Assembly: GCA_947366545.1 (NCBI GenBank)
Contig: CANBAL010000001.1
Location: forward strand, 122,504 to 186,503
Length of the DNA: 64,000 nucleotides
Reading direction: 5' to 3'
Origin: an uncultured Clostridia bacterium
Lineage (GTDB): Bacteria; Bacillota; Clostridia; Christensenellales; UBA1242
In this document: in pieces, positions 9,040 to 43,648 of the stretch
Layout: the number at the start of each line of letters is the position of its first letter
Numbering within the stretch: the first letter of the stretch is position 1
Notes under the pieces: generated by a model
The model's database searches: none
The model's input: the letters and a program-made list of their open reading frames with translations, nothing else
Told to the model about the DNA's origin: nothing
Made by a program: the position numbers and the translations under genes

Positions 9040-10752
9040 CTACATTTTGTCTGGTACTTCTATAGCAAGAACATTAAGTGCCTGCATAAGTTTTTTCTTA
9101 ACAAGGTGTAATAATGCAACCCAGCCAGCCTTCTTTTGGGCATCTTTTTCATTAACAACATTATAGTTGTTATAAAACCCAGAGAATGCACTCGCAAGGT
9201 CATATACCGCAGAGCAAAGTCCATTTAATGACTTCTCTTGATAACATACCTCATATGCAGAATTAAGTTTTATAATAGCACGCATTATATTGCGTTCCTC
9301 TTCTGTCGTTATATTAATGTTGCCAGCAGGAATATCAATCTTATTTAAAATAGAGTTTATACGCACAACAGTATATTGAATATATGGGCCGGTTTTCCCT
9401 TCAAATGCAAGAAATTTATCGAGGTCAAAAATATAATCCTTAGATACATTATTGATAAGGTCGCCAAATTTCATAGCACCAACGCCGATTTTAAGTGCCA
9501 TATCTTCACCGCCTTCAACACCGTTTGCCTTAAGTTTCTCTCCCGCTTTGGTAGAAAGCATAGAAATGATATCTTCAAGTTTTATAGTGTCACCACTACG
9601 CGTTTTAAAAGGCTTTCCGTCCTTTCCGTTCATGGTTCCATTTACAATATGTACAAGCTGTTGCCCTTCAGGAGAAATACCGCTCATTTTACAAACCCTA
9701 AACACCTGTTTAAAGTGGAGCTGTTGACGACCATCGGTTACATATTCAATGCGATCAACATTTTTATACATCTTGTTTCGCATAAGAATTGTCGCAATAT
9801 CAGTGGTTGCATAAAGTGATGCGCCATTTGATTTTTGAATAAGGCATGGGGGCATAGGCGCATTGTCGCTTTCACTTGCAACCTCTACAACCTTTGCTCC
9901 TTCACTAGACTTTAATAGTCTCCTTTTATCAAGTATTTCGATTGCCTCACCGCAATAATCGTCTGCGGTACTTTCTCCATACCAAAGGTCAAACTGCGCT
10001 CCAAGTTTGGAGTAGTTAGCTGCAATTTCTTTCACAGAAAGTTCGCGTATCACTTGATAAATTTCATAGTATGGGCTTTCTTTACGCTGGATTTTAAGTG
10101 TCCAATCTTCCGCCTTCAACCTAAAGTCTTCTTCCTGCCCCTTTCTAGCACTTGCTTTTGGATAGGCTTCGTTTAAATCGTCAAGGGTAAGAGTTTTGTT
10201 CTTGCCTTTGCCGAAATAGCCGTCAAGTTTTCCATCTTCATAAAGTTGCAGTTCGGTAAGCCCCATTTGAAGTCCCCAGTCACCAAGGTGGACATCACTG
10301 ATAACCTTATCACCCATGAGTTTATATAGCCTTTTCAAACTCTCACCAATGATTGCAGGGCGAAGATGTCCCACATGGAGTGCCTTTGCAACATTTGCCC
10401 CGCCATAGTCAAGTATAATAAACTGAGATTTATTGTGTTTTACAAGTCCACCACGCTCATCTTTTAAATACGCCACGCCAAGTTTAGAAAGTTTTTTATC
10501 GGTAAGTTTTATATTTATAAATGCCTTCATTACAAAAAATTCATAATCTTCCGTCTTTTCAATGTTTGCAACAAGTTCCTCCGCGAGTGCGACAGGATTT
10601 TTTCCTACCCTCTTTGCGAGTGCAAAGCACCCATTGCATTGAAAATCACAAACCTCTGGCAAGGAAGAAAAAGATACCTTAAAATCAGCATCCTCAACCC
10701 CTATCTTTTTGCCTGCAATATTAAGCAACTGTTCTATTTCTTTCTTTATCAT
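9040..10752 (-). CDS. argS: Arginine--tRNA ligase
   Basis: 570 aa counted from MIKKEIEQLL (GGGGAG SD). It has the class I HVGH motif (NVAKALHVGHLR) and an ArgRS-type N-terminal domain and anticodon-binding end. Confidence 0.9.
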   Translation of the reverse strand: MIKKEIEQLLNIAGKKIGVEDADFKVSFSSLPEVCDFQCNGCFALAKRVGKNPVALAEELVANIEKTEDYEFFVMKAFINIKLTDKKLSKLGVAYLKDERGGLVKHNKSQFIILDYGGANVAKALHVGHLRPAIIGESLKRLYKLMGDKVISDVHLGDWGLQMGLTELQLYEDGKLDGYFGKGKNKTLTLDDLNEAYPKASARKGQEEDFRLKAEDWTLKIQRKESPYYEIYQVIRELSVKEIAANYSKLGAQFDLWYGESTADDYCGEAIEILDKRRLLKSSEGAKVVEVASESDNAPMPPCLIQKSNGASLYATTDIATILMRNKMYKNVDRIEYVTDGRQQLHFKQVFRVCKMSGISPEGQQLVHIVNGTMNGKDGKPFKTRSGDTIKLEDIISMLSTKAGEKLKANGVEGGEDMALKIGVGAMKFGDLINNVSKDYIFDLDKFLAFEGKTGPYIQYTVVRINSILNKIDIPAGNINITTEEERNIMRAIIKLNSAYEVCYQEKSLNGLCSAVYDLASAFSGFYNNYNVVNEKDAQKKAGWVALLHLVKKKLMQALNVLAIEVPDKM

Positions 10753-10754
10753 GT

Positions 10755-11402
10755 TTACTCCCCAATTATTTTTTTGTAAACCTCTTGAACACATAAATTT
10801 ATTTTTGAAGCATCAAATTGGTAAATCGCTCCGCCTAATTTTTCAAATGGCAGGAGATTTTTCATACTATCATCAATAAATAGGCTTTTTTGCGGTCTAA
10901 TCCCCCACTTTTTTAATGCAAACTCATAAAAAGCCAATTCCGGTTTTCGTAATCCTACATCACAAGAGAATACGCAATCATCAAATTTATTGTAATTTAT
11001 AATAGAAGACAAAACTTCCACAACTTCTTTGCACATATTTGAAAGTAGGTAAACTTTATACCCTTTTTGTTTCAATTTATCAATTAGCTCTAAAGTTTCA
11101 GAATAAAGAAAATTATATTTTAACTCTAGCGCGCTATTAAAAAATATCTCTGCCAGCTTTTTAGGCTCATCTGCCACTTTTAAAACTTCTTGTAACACTT
11201 CGTCTTTAGTGACAAATCCCTTATCCCATTCCTTAAAACAAGGCATAGGCAAGTATTTAGCGACAAAATCGCAAAGCCCAAGACCTTCATACTTTTTAGA
11301 GTATTTTTTCTTTAAGTCAGAAGGCAGCAACTCACTTAATGGCGGGTTGCTTATACCTCTCAAAACGCCATCCAAGTCAAAAATAACATTCTTTATTTTC
11401 AT
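10755..11402 (-). CDS. HAD-superfamily hydrolase (subfamily IA-like)
   Basis: 215 aa with VIFDLDGVL (motif I), LLSN (motif II) and a FIDDS-type motif near the C-terminus. Confidence 0.75.
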   Translation of the reverse strand: MKIKNVIFDLDGVLRGISNPPLSELLPSDLKKKYSKKYEGLGLCDFVAKYLPMPCFKEWDKGFVTKDEVLQEVLKVADEPKKLAEIFFNSALELKYNFLYSETLELIDKLKQKGYKVYLLSNMCKEVVEVLSSIINYNKFDDCVFSCDVGLRKPELAFYEFALKKWGIRPQKSLFIDDSMKNLLPFEKLGGAIYQFDASKINLCVQEVYKKIIGE

Positions 11403-11405
11403 CCT

Positions 11406-11996
11406 TTACCTCATCAACCTTCTCTCTTCCATTGCTCTTGAAAGTGTAACTTCATCAGCGTATTCAAGATCGCTGCCCATAGATACCCCCTGTGCAAGTC
11501 TTGTAACCTTAACACCAAGCGGATTTAGAAGTCTGGCGATATACATTGCTGTTGCATCCCCCTCAACATCAGGGTTGGTTGCCATAATCACCTCTTCAAC
11601 TCCGTCATTTTTTATCCTTTCAAGTAGTTCGCGAATACGAATATCATCTGGGCCTCTATTTTCAAGTGGGCTTATTGTGCCAAACAGCACATGGTAAACC
11701 CCAGCATAATCCTTAACCTTTTCCATTGAAACAACATCTTTAGGTTCCTTCACAACACAGACAATCTTTCTATTGCGTTTTTCGCAGATATCACAAATCT
11801 CTCTATCAGTGAAATTTCCACAAATCTTACAAAAGCCTATTTTTGTTTTTGCCTCAATTATTGCATTAGAAAAATTCTCTGCCCGCGTTTTACTTCCCTC
11901 TATTATTGAGTAAGCATAACGCTGTGCGGTTTTATACCCAACACTTGGCAGAGTTCTAAATTGTTCAATTAGTTTTTCAATAGTTTCGTTTTGCAT
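11406..11996 (-). CDS. recR: Recombination protein RecR
   Basis: 196 aa with an HhH N-terminus, a C4 zinc finger (CKICGN...CDIC) and a Toprim domain. Conserved dnaX-ybaB-recR order. Confidence 0.93.
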   Translation of the reverse strand: MQNETIEKLIEQFRTLPSVGYKTAQRYAYSIIEGSKTRAENFSNAIIEAKTKIGFCKICGNFTDREICDICEKRNRKIVCVVKEPKDVVSMEKVKDYAGVYHVLFGTISPLENRGPDDIRIRELLERIKNDGVEEVIMATNPDVEGDATAMYIARLLNPLGVKVTRLAQGVSMGSDLEYADEVTLSRAMEERRLMR

Positions 11997-11997
11997 G

Positions 11998-12315
11998 TTA
12001 CATTCCTAGAGAAGGAAGTTTCTCTTTCTCCACCCTTTCTATTTGGCCAATCGCATCGTTAAATGCAGAAACAATAAGGTCTTCTAGCATCTCAACATCA
12101 TCTGGGTCAACAACCTCTTGTTTAATTTTTACTGTCTTCAGCGTCTTATTACCAAGCATTACCACCTCTACCATTCCGCCGCCACTACGCGCTGTAAACT
12201 CGGTTTCATCGATTTCGCGTCTTGTCCTTTGCATATCCTCTTGCATTTTCTGTGCTTGACGCATGAGTGACTGCATATTGCCTCCGCCAAAACCTCCAAA
12301 ATTTCCGTATGCCAT
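11998..12315 (-). CDS. ybaB: Nucleoid-associated protein YbaB/EbfC
   Basis: 105 aa with the typical N-terminus GGGNMQSLMRQAQKMQEDMQ and SGGGMVEV. Confidence 0.9.
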   Translation of the reverse strand: MAYGNFGGFGGGNMQSLMRQAQKMQEDMQRTRREIDETEFTARSGGGMVEVVMLGNKTLKTVKIKQEVVDPDDVEMLEDLIVSAFNDAIGQIERVEKEKLPSLGM

Positions 12316-12331
12316 AATTACCCTCCTTACC

Positions 12332-12658
12332 TTATTTTATTATCAAATATTCGCCTAATAGTTTATTAAGTTTTTCTATGTCTTTCTCTTGTCCGCTCTT
12401 TTCAACCGGTGCATATTCTATTTTTAGGGCTAGGTCTATTCCCTGCCACCTTATTGCATTTTCGATTTCTCTACGCCCCTCTGTAAGAAGGTTGTAAATT
12501 GCCAAATCTTTAAGTTTTACTACAAGTTTCCCGTCTTCAATAGTTACATCGGTAATATCTCCGCATGCCACATGGAGAGCCACCTGCCTATGTTCCTTTA
12601 AGAACAAGACTATCTTTCCCCACACGGTTTTTGGCGTTATATTACCTTTGACCGCCAT
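12332..12658 (-). CDS. ORF in the position of the DnaX (tau) C-terminal domain; in the -1 frame relative to dnaX
   Basis: 108 aa counted from the ATG at 12658. There is no SD. It lies 5 nt after the dnaX stop, and its frame is open back through the A9 run of dnaX. It sits between dnaX and ybaB. Confidence 0.6.
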   Translation of the reverse strand: MAVKGNITPKTVWGKIVLFLKEHRQVALHVACGDITDVTIEDGKLVVKLKDLAIYNLLTEGRREIENAIRWQGIDLALKIEYAPVEKSGQEKDIEKLNKLLGEYLIIK

Positions 12659-12663
12659 CAACT

Positions 12664-13776
12664 TTAGTTTTTTTTTACATCCTCGCTATTTAGCCCCATC
12701 ATTGCTGAAAGCGAAAGCGTTTCAAGCAGCAGTCTTGGGGAGAGTGTGTACCGAAGTTCGTTCTCTGCCCCTGCAAAGATTTGCATAAAAGAAATCAGTT
12801 TCTTTTCATCCACCGCCTTAGCCTGAGCGATAAATCTTTCAAGCACCTCTTGTGGCAGATTTAATAGTTTGTTTGGATCATCACAAGTGGCACAAACAAG
12901 CAAGTTTCTTGCATGCTTTGACAAATCCTTTACAAACACTGACATATTCTTGCCAGTTTTATCAAGTTCGTCAATAAATTCAAGCAGTCCACCAATCTCT
13001 TTATTGAAAGCAAGATCATAAAATTTTAACAAATTGTCATAATCTGTACTTCCAAGTACTTTCAATGCATCCTCTTTGGTGACTTTGCCGCCGCTGTATG
13101 CGCATATTGAATCCGCAATCGAAAGCGTGTCTCTCACACTGCCTTCCCCGCTTGCTGCGATGAGTTTTAATGCCTCATCATCATAACTAATATTTTCACT
13201 ATCTAATATATTGCGGAGTAATTTTGTCAGTAACTCCACGCTTACAAGTCTAAAGTCAAATCTTACGCATCTAGAAAGTATTGTGGCTGGAAGTTTATGC
13301 ACCTCTGTGGTTGCCAAAATGAAAATGACATGTTTTGGTGGTTCCTCAAGTGTTTTTAAAAGTGCATTAAATGCACTGTCTGTAAGCATATGCACTTCGT
13401 CAATTATGTATACCTTATATTTAGCACCTACTGGAAGAAACTTCACCTTTTCGCGTATCTCACGAATATCATCCACCCTATTATTCGATGCAGCATCAAT
13501 TTCAATTACATTGATATCGTTTTCACCTTCCAGTCTTTTGCAGGTATCGCATTGCCCACATGGCGAGCCATTTTGATTGTTTTCACAATTTACTGCTTTT
13601 GCAAGTATTCTTGCAACGCTGGTTTTACCTATTCCACGTGATCCTGTGAAAAGATAGGCATGAGATAAACTGCCACTTGCAATTTGATTTGCAAGTGCTT
13701 TCGTAATATGTTCCTGCCCGATAACCTCTTCAAAGTTTTTTGGTCTATACTTTCTATATAATGCTAAATGTTCCAT
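12664..13776 (-). CDS. dnaX: DNA polymerase III subunit gamma/tau, short (370 aa) form
   Basis: Walker A (GSRGIGKTS), a Zn module (CENNQNGSPCGQCDTC), DEVHML and SRC motifs are present. It ends right after domain III. Confidence 0.92.
   Translation of the reverse strand: MEHLALYRKYRPKNFEEVIGQEHITKALANQIASGSLSHAYLFTGSRGIGKTSVARILAKAVNCENNQNGSPCGQCDTCKRLEGENDINVIEIDAASNNRVDDIREIREKVKFLPVGAKYKVYIIDEVHMLTDSAFNALLKTLEEPPKHVIFILATTEVHKLPATILSRCVRFDFRLVSVELLTKLLRNILDSENISYDDEALKLIAASGEGSVRDTLSIADSICAYSGGKVTKEDALKVLGSTDYDNLLKFYDLAFNKEIGGLLEFIDELDKTGKNMSVFVKDLSKHARNLLVCATCDDPNKLLNLPQEVLERFIAQAKAVDEKKLISFMQIFAGAENELRYTLSPRLLLETLSLSAMMGLNSEDVKKN
12668..12676 (-). other. A9 homopolymer (candidate slippery site) at the dnaX 3' end
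   Basis: The minus strand reads GAGGATGTAAAAAAAAACTAAAGTTGATG. Frame 0 gives GTA AAA AAA AAC TAA. The -1 frame gives AAA AAA AAA CTA AAG TTG ATG GCG, which is the downstream ORF. Confidence 0.6.
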
Positions 13777-13816: not shown

Positions 13817-14563
13817 TTAAACAAGGCTTATTAAATTTAAAAATCCGCCTTCTTCCAAACTTGCCCCACCGATAAGTGCACCATTAACGCCCTTTGCATG
13901 GGTGATACCATGAATATTCTTGTTTGTCACACTTCCGCCATAAAGGACTGTTATGCTCTTTGCCGCTTTAAGGGAAAAGTCGTCTTCAATAACCTTTCTT
14001 ATCGCCCTTACGCCGTATTCAATTTCCCTTATTGTTGCATTTTTGCCGGTACCTATCGCCCAAATCGGCTCATAAGAAATGGTCACGCGCTCAAGCTCAT
14101 TTTCATAAAGCCCTTTTAGTGCTTCTTCTATCTGAGTTTTCAAAGTCTCTAATGTTTTTAAAGTGTTCTTTTCAGCAAGAGATTCTCCTACGCAAAGAAT
14201 TACTCCAAGCCCATTTTTTAGTGCAACTTTAATTTTTTTGTTTATTTGGTTGTTATTTTCTTTAAATTTTACCCGTCTTTCGCTATGTCCTACTATAACT
14301 GTATCAACTCCACTTTCTCTTAGCATAGCACCGCTAATTTCACCGGTGTAGCTGCCGCACTCCTCTTCATGAAGATTTTGTGCGCCAAGTTTTATCTTCG
14401 TACCATTTAATAACAACTTTCCTAGGTACAAAGAGGTGTATGGCAGACAAAGTGTCAAATCGACATTCTTATCACTATCAAATCTAGAAATCATATTGAT
14501 CAAATATTCTCGTGACCTAGATGGCGTTTGATTCATTTTAATATTTGCTACTATCTTTTTCAT
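13817..14563 (-). CDS. tpiA: Triosephosphate isomerase
   Basis: 248 aa with ANIKMN, VGHSERR, YEPIWAIGTG and GGASL motifs. It overlaps the pgk stop. Confidence 0.93.
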   Translation of the reverse strand: MKKIVANIKMNQTPSRSREYLINMISRFDSDKNVDLTLCLPYTSLYLGKLLLNGTKIKLGAQNLHEEECGSYTGEISGAMLRESGVDTVIVGHSERRVKFKENNNQINKKIKVALKNGLGVILCVGESLAEKNTLKTLETLKTQIEEALKGLYENELERVTISYEPIWAIGTGKNATIREIEYGVRAIRKVIEDDFSLKAAKSITVLYGGSVTNKNIHGITHAKGVNGALIGGASLEEGGFLNLISLV

Positions 14564-15735
14564 CTTATCTTCTCCTGAATAACCTCAAGGCATGGCAAGG
14601 ATCCATCTTCAATAAATTTCAAAGTTGCTCCGCCGCCAGTAGAAAGGAAGTTGACCCCACTCGCGTTCTTGCTTGCTTTGACCGCACTCACGCTGTCTCC
14701 GCCGCCAACAACCGAATACGCCTTACTTACACTAATAGCTTTAGCAATTTTATTTGTGCCCTCTCTGAACTCCTCATCTTCATACTTGCCAAGAGGACCA
14801 TTCCATACTATCTGTCCTGCCTTTGCTATTTCTTCACTAAACAGTTTCACCGTCTTTGGCCCGATATCCATACCAACCATATCTTCAATAAGGTTGTCGG
14901 TTACAAACTTTTTAGTAGAGCCCTTTCTTACTGCAACATGATCGATAGGAAGAAGTACCTTCTTTCCCTTTTGCGCTGCGTAATTAAGCACCTCGCGTGC
15001 AACATCAACACTATCAAGGTAGGTTATAGATTCCCCGACCGCGGTGCCTGTGGCAACAAGGAAGGTATACGCCATTGCACCGCCAATCAAAATGGTATCG
15101 GCTTGGTCAATAAAGCGTCTTAATATCTTGATTTTATATGGCACCTTTGCACCGCCGATAACTGCTACAAAAGGTCTTTTAGGGTTTTCCATGGCTTGAG
15201 TAAGAACATTAACCTCTTTCTCCATAAGTAGTCCTATCGCATTTGGCATAAGCCTTGCTATGCCATATGTAGTTGCATGTTTTCTATGGGAGCAACCGAA
15301 AGCATCGTTGACAAAAACATCACCTATTGATGCAAGGTCGCGAGCAAACTTCATGTCGCAATTTACTTCGCCTTCGTAAAATCTTACATTTTCAAGTAAA
15401 AGCACCTCGCCATTATTCATTGAGTGTAGCCTTTCCTTAACCTCTACCCCTACGGCCTTATTGCTGAAATATACCTTGGTGTTAAGTTTTTGCATGAGTA
15501 TTAAAGAAATTGGCCACAGCGATAATCTAATTTCATAGCCTTGTGGACGCCCCATGTGTGACATAATCACTATTTTTGCACCCTGTTCTATTAAATATTT
15601 AATAGTTGGAATAGCAGCATTCACCCTGTTTAAATCCAAAATCTTACCATTTTTGTCGATTGGCACATTGAAATCTACACGAAGTAGCACTACTTTACCT
15701 TTAAGATTTACCAAATCCTTTACCGTTCTTTTCAT
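14560..15735 (-). CDS. pgk: Phosphoglycerate kinase
   Basis: 391 aa with RVDFNVP, SHMGRP and STGGGA motifs. Confidence 0.95.
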   Translation of the reverse strand: MKRTVKDLVNLKGKVVLLRVDFNVPIDKNGKILDLNRVNAAIPTIKYLIEQGAKIVIMSHMGRPQGYEIRLSLWPISLILMQKLNTKVYFSNKAVGVEVKERLHSMNNGEVLLLENVRFYEGEVNCDMKFARDLASIGDVFVNDAFGCSHRKHATTYGIARLMPNAIGLLMEKEVNVLTQAMENPKRPFVAVIGGAKVPYKIKILRRFIDQADTILIGGAMAYTFLVATGTAVGESITYLDSVDVAREVLNYAAQKGKKVLLPIDHVAVRKGSTKKFVTDNLIEDMVGMDIGPKTVKLFSEEIAKAGQIVWNGPLGKYEDEEFREGTNKIAKAISVSKAYSVVGGGDSVSAVKASKNASGVNFLSTGGGATLKFIEDGSLPCLEVIQEKIR

Positions 15736-43571: not shown

Positions 43572-43648
43572 TGGTTGCGGGGGTTGGATTTGAACCAACG
43601 ACCTTCGGGTTATGAGCCCGACGAGCTTCCGAGCTGCTCTACCCCGCG
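43572..43648 (-). tRNA. Initiator tRNA-fMet (anticodon CAT), CCA encoded
   Basis: The reverse complement reads CGCGGGGTAGAGCAGCTCGGAAGCTCGTCGGGCTCATAACCCGAAGGTCGTTGGTTCAAATCCAACCCCCGCAACCA. It has a C1xA72 mismatch and three G-C pairs closing the anticodon stem, and is near-identical to E. coli tRNA-fMet. Confidence 0.95.

Follow-up and report, generated by a model that had tools for sequence, protein, structure and literature searches.

A dnaX gene divided between two reading frames at a conserved A9 run in uncultured Clostridia, with tau probably made by recoding

The dnaX locus examined here raises a simple question, i.e., whether two adjacent open reading frames (ORFs) are two genes or one gene read in two frames. 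The locus lies in a stretch of 64,000 nucleotides (nt) from an uncultured Clostridia bacterium (assembly GCA_947366545.1, contig CANBAL010000001.1, positions 122,504 to 186,503), and this whole stretch is called the window below. On the minus strand, dnaX ends in a run of nine A residues (A9), and a small ORF follows in the -1 frame. A preliminary description of the window had proposed that slippage at the run joins the two ORFs into one longer, tau-like protein. The features of the junction are as follows.

12664-13776, minus strand: dnaX ORF1, encoding a gamma-like clamp-loader subunit of 370 amino acids (aa) by standard decoding (ORF list and Pfam)
12668-12676, minus strand: slippery A9 run on the sense strand (T9 on the plus strand), the proposed recoding site
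12664-12666, minus strand: zero-frame stop TAA ending the gamma-like product, 1 nt (the C of AAC) past the A9 run
12332-12667, minus strand: putative tau-specific coding sequence in the -1 frame (L-K-L-M-A-V-K...), with its stop at 12332-12334
12332-12661, minus strand: 109-codon ORF that gene callers list separately, part of the tau-specific sequence
12347-12634, minus strand: predicted folded C-terminal domain (small-ORF residues about 10-105), presumed to be the replisome-interaction domain of tau (AlphaFold2, Foldseek)
12680-12684, minus strand: GAGGA, 3 nt 5' of the A9 run, formed by the Glu-Asp codons GAG GAT; not conserved

The 370-aa protein was assigned to DnaX domains I-III by Pfam, i.e., DNA_pol3_delta2 (1.9e-48), DNAX_ATPase_lid (1.1e-12), and DNA_pol3_gamma3 (3.6e-09), and a zinc module with four Cys was seen in its translation. 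The earlier reading of a dnaX that stops after 370 codons, with an ATPase, a Zn module, and domain III, was thereby borne out. On the sense strand, the 3' end of dnaX reads AGC GAG GAT GTA AAA AAA AAC TAA, and the terminal codons and the T9 run were found exactly as first described. The -1 frame is open from the A9 run into the 109-codon ORF with no intervening stop, so the claim that the two share this frame holds. The small ORF is listed with a TTG start and has an ATG one codon later. Its start had been placed 5 nt after the dnaX stop, which is correct for the ATG, whereas the listed TTG lies 2 nt after the stop. The reported lack of a Shine-Dalgarno (SD) sequence was also confirmed, and the sequence 5' of the ORF is the A-run itself. 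When one A is inserted in the run, a 482-aa product results, with the junction ...SEDVKKKLKLMAVKGN....

Our answer to the question is that the two ORFs are one dnaX gene in two frames, joined by programmed recoding at the conserved A9 run, mainly through transcriptional slippage. We give this reading a probability of roughly 0.7, and recoding of some kind at the junction is held with high confidence. In the proposed mechanism, standard decoding would stop one codon past the run and give the gamma-like 370-aa DnaX with domains I-III. In a fraction of transcripts, RNA polymerase would most likely slip on the T9 template and add one non-templated A, giving A10 (also A13 or A7). The slipped mRNA would be translated normally through KKK-L-K into the -1 frame, and the product would gain a linker of ~25 aa and a C-terminal domain of ~85 aa, becoming a tau-like DnaX of 482 aa. 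With A8 or A11, translation would enter the third frame and give further gamma-like forms. The net result would be that one gene supplies both clamp-loader subunits, and the domain specific to tau would presumably hold the clamp loader to the polymerase, the helicase, or both. A short product from linear decoding, and a tau-like one of ~480 aa after a -1 slip or an extra A, had been predicted before; the comparative evidence supports this.

The small ORF was used as a query, and 85 protein clusters were found, all of 82-125 aa. Eighty loci were fetched, one per species-level genome, and all of them came from metagenome-assembled genomes (MAGs) of uncultured Clostridia or 'Christensenellales-like' bacteria, including Candidatus Caccovivens. 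The end of dnaX was included in 79 of the 80, which were taken as informative. DnaX identity to the window across this genome set was 67-96%. The slippery run itself, A9 or in a few cases A10, was present in all 79 informative genome loci and in all 34 informative loci of a metagenome contig scan. In 78 of the 79, as in the window, the run (A9, rarely A10) was accompanied by a nearby zero-frame stop and a small ORF at -1, and two genome loci had A10 in a different phase with the -1 relation kept. The metagenome loci had A9 (34/34), and the small ORF stood at -1 wherever the frame could be determined (31/31); many of these loci are non-identical replicates (97-99.9%) of species in the genome set. 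The comparison of dnaX 3' ends suggested in the preliminary description was thus in favor of a kept A-run and frame relation (78/79 genomes, 34/34 metagenome contigs). Among the 120 closest DnaX cluster representatives, 119 were 327-393 aa long, i.e., of gamma length.

The junction was found to be fixed in several respects. The zero-frame stop lies 1 nt past the run in 75 of the 79 split loci (TGA 52, TAA 23); in the remaining four, it comes two codons further on. The codon that gives the first A of the run was GTA in 50 loci, GCA in 19, ACA in 5, TCA in 3, and GAA in 2. Thus, the wobble A opening the run is invariant, though the encoded residue varies among V, A, T, S, and E. The first codon past the run is CTN in every genome locus, the base after the run is C (T in two loci) and never G, and the -1 frame after the run reads KKKL(K/N/I/Q) in all loci. 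The distance from the run to the invariant motif HVACGDIT is 93 nt, or 90 or 96 nt in a few loci. In the conservation profile, the positions flanking the run vary freely. Lysine is encoded by AAA in only 73% of cases elsewhere in these genes, and from local codon usage the chance of xxA AAA AAA is ~0.19 per species, or ~1e-57 for 79 species taken as independent, so that the run is kept far more often than chance would give.

Some members of the family deserve separate mention. The NCBI MAG records of P0005 and P0059 name Acetobacter sp. or Treponema sp. as the source; these labels are probably binning or taxonomy errors, because all other family members are from Clostridia MAGs. In L121, L122, and L124, the junction reads TTA AAA AAA AAC GAA ATT TGA, and the run is ~45 nt upstream of a WG motif. 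In these three, a Leu codon supplies the wobble A and the zero-frame stop is displaced by two codons; KKKRNLIK takes the place of KKKLK in the -1 frame.

Records with an in-frame A10 were few. L028 is the single in-frame genome, and between it and L100, an A9 locus, the identity is 98.15% with one gap. L028 was considered as a fixed, 'normal' continuous relative and was rejected as such in view of L100. Another record, P0285/L125, encodes a protein of 480 aa, the sole one of fusion length among the 120 closest DnaX clusters; it has A10 and comes from a contig at 2.4x coverage. Within the clade, in-frame A10 looks like a rare polymorphism or a low-coverage error only. Coexistence of A9 and A10 within a species is expected if both genotypes yield both proteins via slippage.

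The identity of the small-ORF product was taken from its distant relatives. A family profile searched against 1.84 billion representative proteins gave only 151 matches, most of them short and with the domain at the C-terminus. Two of the matched proteins, P0214 (488 aa) and P0221 (507 aa), are complete DnaX proteins with Pfam domains I-III, and the small-ORF domain is located at their extreme C-terminus. They have no lysine run, and ybaB-recR lies downstream of their genes. Because of this fusion, the small-ORF product is, on sequence grounds, a genuine DnaX C-terminal domain, and its first placement in the slot of the tau C-terminal region is borne out. In an alignment of 33 small-ORF sequences, 16 columns were invariant. 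The domain belongs to a new family that Pfam does not model, and the part specific to tau is very short (~112 aa).

The domain was predicted by AlphaFold2 as a compact alpha/beta fold in the order H-H-E-E-H-H-E-H, with a mean predicted local distance difference test score of 88.1. The best fold match in the PDB was DnaA domain I (4TPS; probability 0.98, root-mean-square deviation 2.5 A over 75 columns), with 2JMP and 2E0G also matched, and the helicase loader DciA (8A3V, 7YKM) was among the other top Foldseek matches. These DnaA domain I and DciA matches had probabilities of 0.89-0.98, E values of 0.02-0.2, and template modelling scores of 0.4-0.69. Structural homology of the DciA domain with both the DnaA N-terminus and the tau C-terminal domain has been described (PMC9825169). 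The predicted fold is consistent with a tau-type interaction module, and with scores this weak it is supportive only. Because the closest folds, DnaA domain I and DciA, are helicase-binding modules, the model hints that the domain may contact the replicative helicase rather than, or besides, the polymerase. A profile search of the small-ORF family against PDB sequences gave only noise (E of at least 0.26). At E<=0.001, the family profile did not reach the C-termini of B. subtilis-type tau, and no search aimed at such remote homology was made.

Signals for ribosomal frameshifting were searched around the run. No conserved SD-like element was found, as any SD-like 4-mer within 25 nt upstream of the run was present in only 26 of 79 loci. 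The GAGGA noted upstream of the run in the preliminary description is present in the window, but as an SD-like stimulator it was rejected on this count. Folding energies of the 60 nt upstream and downstream of the run equaled the control (mean z-score -0.42 vs -0.45 in the control), and RNAalifold gave 0 consensus pairs for 30 diverse 75-nt downstream segments; a stem-loop stimulator was rejected on these results. The Rfam DnaX element had no match at E<=10, and a scan of the whole window did not give it either. In the +1 frame, a stop is reached within 9 codons at 78 of 79 loci, as in slippage of the Thermus type; given the AT-rich sequence, this is weak evidence for such slippage.

Long A/T runs are rare in this DNA. 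The window contains 150 A/T runs of length 6, 37 of length 7, one of length 8, and one of length 9, and the dnaX site is the sole run of at least 9. By an independent-base model at 37% guanine-plus-cytosine content, ~2.7 A/T runs of at least 9 are expected in the window. Since the counts drop abruptly (37 to 1 to 1) against the ~2.7 predicted, strong genome-wide avoidance of slippage-prone runs is suggested. In 421 kb of related loci, A/T runs of at least 9 number 80 at the dnaX junction and 2 elsewhere, both intergenic T9. One of these two (L078:5054-5062) is the U-tract of an intergenic intrinsic terminator (AAGCAAGAA-TTGT-TTTCTTGC-T9). Scarcity of long runs has been linked to slippage-prone polymerases (Baranov et al. 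2005, PMC1088944).

The small ORF could instead be a gene of its own, whose 109-aa protein is initiated at the TTG or ATG, or by coupling of termination and reinitiation, and acts in trans with a gamma-only DnaX. Every database annotates the pair as separate genes, the window offers the TTG and ATG just past the dnaX stop, and 34 of 79 loci have a canonical start codon no more than 12 nt from the run. However, no SD was found in the relatives either, and only 27 of 78 loci carry ATG, GTG, or TTG where the window has its TTG, whereas 19 have codons unable to start translation (the commonest codons in relatives are ATT 28, ATG 14, and TTG 13, followed by various others). In 31 of 79 loci, the first in-frame ATG, GTG, or TTG is at least 39 nt downstream, inside or past conserved residues. 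The called starts of the 85 small-ORF clusters are ragged, and some begin inside the invariant core LHVACGDIT. The start-codon survey and the lack of an SD led us to reject separate initiation across the clade. A two-gene model also gives no reason why the A9 and the Leu codon are invariant and the linker length is fixed, and the domain is fused within one DnaX in distant relatives, so that we regard two genes as very improbable. Even less credible is that the gene is really continuous with A10 and the A9 is a sequencing or assembly error, or that the DNA tract switches between A9 and A10 by replication slippage. Homopolymers are indeed prone to sequencing error, in-frame A10 records exist (L028, P0285/L125, and L088, a distant contig described below), and the L028/L100 pair shows A10 and A9 inside one species. 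However, more than 110 independent assemblies from varied studies and pipelines have A9 or a -1-phased A10, several within-species replicate assemblies (97-99.9% identity) are uniformly A9, and the A10 of P0285 rests on 2.4x coverage. On/off switching of a subunit that organizes the replisome is also biologically implausible. Because of the independent metagenome A9 loci, the L028/L100 pair, and the gamma length of 119 of 120 clusters, systematic homopolymer error is judged, from these assemblies, to be excluded for the clade, and the true-A10 alternative raised in the preliminary description falls with it.

A harder choice is between polymerase slippage and programmed -1 ribosomal frameshifting on A_AAA_AAA or A_AAA_AAC, perhaps aided by slow termination, with a faithful A9 mRNA. 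The frameshifting route would be favored by the uniform -1 direction of the shift in all split loci, as one-directionality was a hint of programmed frameshifting in Antonov et al. (PMC3711429), and by the zero-frame stop immediately past the site in 75 of 79 loci. For some reversed dnaX genes, e.g., that of Chlorobium phaeobacteroides, ribosomal frameshifting was likewise considered by Atkins et al. 2016 (PMC5009743). Nevertheless, polymerase slippage is favored over frameshifting of the E. coli type, because a conserved SD-like element, a downstream structure, and the Rfam element are all absent. It is also favored because all nine A's are invariant, including the wobble position, although a ribosomal heptamer needs only seven, and because runs of at least 8 are otherwise avoided. 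In addition, A_AAA_AAG, the shiftiest bacterial heptamer, is used in none of the loci (A_AAA_AAC and A_AAA_AAA are far less shifty than it in E. coli; PMC5009743), and A9 and A10 genotypes coexist in one species. An A9 template is expected to provoke polymerase slippage anyway (PMC5009743, PMC1088944). As the main route, therefore, ribosomal frameshifting is considered unlikely, but it may contribute beside polymerase slippage. Several points weigh against the reading of one gene joined mainly by polymerase slippage. The run holds two overlapping X_XXY_YYZ heptamers in the right phase beside the stop, and some stimulator-free frameshifting is possible and would yield the same KKKL junction peptide. 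The occurrence of slippage, its place at the level of transcription, the product ratio, and the partner of the domain are all things that we infer. All compared sequences are MAGs or metagenome contigs, none from isolates. The compared species are related, so that the figure of ~1e-57 overstates their independence. Conservation of all nine A's is also in part hard to separate from what the run encodes, KK-N in frame 0 and KKK-L in frame -1. Pfam detected no tau domain IV/V or other family over threshold in the 109-aa ORF, the sole listing at E<=1 being SporV_AA (E=0.13, 13 bits, vs the 25-bit cut-off), so membership in tau domain IV/V cannot be claimed by sequence. The profile check proposed earlier thus failed with the Pfam DnaX C-terminal families and succeeded with the continuous DnaX proteins P0214 and P0221. 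E. coli tau domain V was matched in Foldseek at E ~1 only, and the scores for a tau-type fold are weak (E 0.02-1).

The arrangement under discussion extends beyond the close relatives. About 20 further representatives, with linkers up to ~90 aa, begin ...[RK]KKKL[IK].... At ~52% DnaX identity to the window, L085 (1878-1886) has A9-C-TAA and a -1 ORF, and L086 (2018-2027) and L087 (374-383) have G-A10-C-TAA and a -1 ORF. Their second ORFs are 196-211 aa, i.e., their tau linkers are far longer. For -1 ORFs of this type, gene callers extend the ORF upstream to a chance ATG or GTG, which gives N-termini like MCEFRPFKKKLIDE. A different form is found at L088:600-680 (JGI 3300014204 contig, P0113), which reads GTC AAAAAAAAAA TAA CTG, with A10 keeping dnaX in frame. 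A linker of ~110 aa leads there to the same C-terminal domain, and with one A fewer, a TAA would come directly past the run. As read from its codons, L088 is a Thermus-like mirror image of the window arrangement within the same domain family. The dnaX genes at L081:2001-3467 and L083:957-2480 are unsplit, encode 488 and 507 aa with the same C-terminal domain, and have A runs of no more than 7. Their sequence distance, at 47-53% DnaX identity, equals that of the split lineages with long linkers. Because unsplit and split long-linker lineages are equally distant, the split may have arisen or been lost more than once.

A dnaX in which tau requires recoding is known. Antonov et al. 2013 (NAR 41:6514, PMC3711429) reported 17 two-ORF dnaX genes of this kind in 12 genera, 12 of them with A7-A10, and this was restated by Atkins et al. 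2016 (PMC5009743). The named examples are from Chlorobi, Bacteroidetes, and Verrucomicrobia, and in most of them a G follows an A10 run (PMC3711429). As in that class, the ORF for domains I-III ends here at or just past an A run of 7-10, the tau C-terminus is in an adjacent -1 ORF that belongs to DnaX, and the run and frame relation are kept among diverged relatives (67-96% and ~52% DnaX identity). The genes are likewise unannotated in databases, and transcriptional realignment was proposed there. At the level of sequence, the window dnaX agrees with the Antonov two-ORF class in every defining feature. Unlike the named examples, the present lineage is from Clostridia (Bacillota), its A9-C runs directly into TAA or TGA, and its tau part is ~112 aa. 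No two-ORF dnaX from Clostridia or Firmicutes was found in a literature search, which is not proof of absence; 5 of the 17 genes are unnamed in the text of PMC3711429. The 'inverted' logic pointed out in the preliminary description is present in this locus; it is not new in itself, having been described in PMC3711429 and PMC5009743. New here are the phylum, the A9-C-stop motif, how widely and strictly the site is conserved, and the very short tau part with an unmodelled domain family.

Other recoded genes were compared. In Thermus thermophilus (Larsen et al. 2000, as described in PMC1088944 and PMC5009743), the A9 of dnaX gives ~50% slippage and two subunits, and no RNA structure is needed. 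The window shares with it a sense-strand A9 near the end of domain III and stops close by in the non-tau frames. In Thermus, however, the zero frame encodes tau and gamma comes from slippage, whereas here the order is reversed; the A10 genotypes L028 and L088 reproduce the Thermus arrangement. In E. coli, the same gene has an A-rich slippery site at the end of domain III and a shift in the -1 direction. The E. coli cassette, however, consists of A_AAA_AAG, which is absent here, and of an upstream SD-like element and a downstream stem-loop, neither of which is conserved here, and its frameshift product is the short gamma, whereas here the shifted product would be tau. Of the two parallels first drawn, therefore, the one with E. 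coli was not upheld and slippage of the Thermus type is favored. A further likeness is mxiE of Shigella flexneri, where one-nucleotide polymerase slippage on a homopolymer fuses two ORFs into a longer functional protein (PMC1088944). Unlike dnaX, mxiE is an unrelated transcription activator gene and has no stoichiometric subunit pair.

The locus is flanked by ybaB, recR, and tpiA, and dnaX-ybaB-recR forms a conserved cluster. The downstream members of the cluster are as follows.

11998-12315, minus strand: ybaB/ebfC, the next gene downstream, with its own SD (AAGGAGG before ATG) (Pfam YbaB_DNA_bd 1.6e-30)
11406-11996, minus strand: recR (Pfam RecR_HhH, RecR_ZnF, Toprim_4, RecR_C)

On the other side of dnaX, pgk (14560-15735) overlaps tpiA (13817-14563) by 4 nt (14560-14563), both on the minus strand. 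An arginyl-tRNA-synthetase-like ORF (9040-10794) and a HAD hydrolase ORF (10755-11402), also on the minus strand, overlap as listed by 40 nt (10755-10794), possibly through an over-extended start call. One tRNA (43575-43648, minus strand) was the sole Rfam family above threshold in the window.

The present findings extend the tau-by-recoding arrangement of dnaX to a new phylum. The principle was already published in 2013, so that current understanding is not overturned. As now annotated, well over 100 gut Clostridia genomes have a short dnaX gene, and the essential-looking tau C-terminus is entered under 'hypothetical protein'. Annotation pipelines, as well as completeness and pseudogene calls, should handle split dnaX as one recoded gene. 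The ~115 independent junctions, in which nine A's, a Leu codon, and a nearby stop are fixed while the surroundings drift, form a set useful for telling polymerase slippage from ribosomal frameshifting. The new tau C-terminal family, with its predicted fold like DnaA domain I and DciA, becomes a candidate for a helicase- or polymerase-binding role. B. subtilis and similar Bacillota models are thought to make tau only. Tentatively, and with less than even confidence, we propose that a large clade of uncultured gut Clostridia independently evolved a reversed dnaX that depends on slippage, from which gamma would be made by default and tau, with a minimal DnaA-domain-I-like tether, only from slipped transcripts. 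If this is true, homopolymer length and the slippage rate of the polymerase (e.g., through nucleoside triphosphate pools or growth rate) would set the tau:gamma stoichiometry, and it would be the first evidence in Bacillota for a gamma form and for a tunable composition of the replisome.

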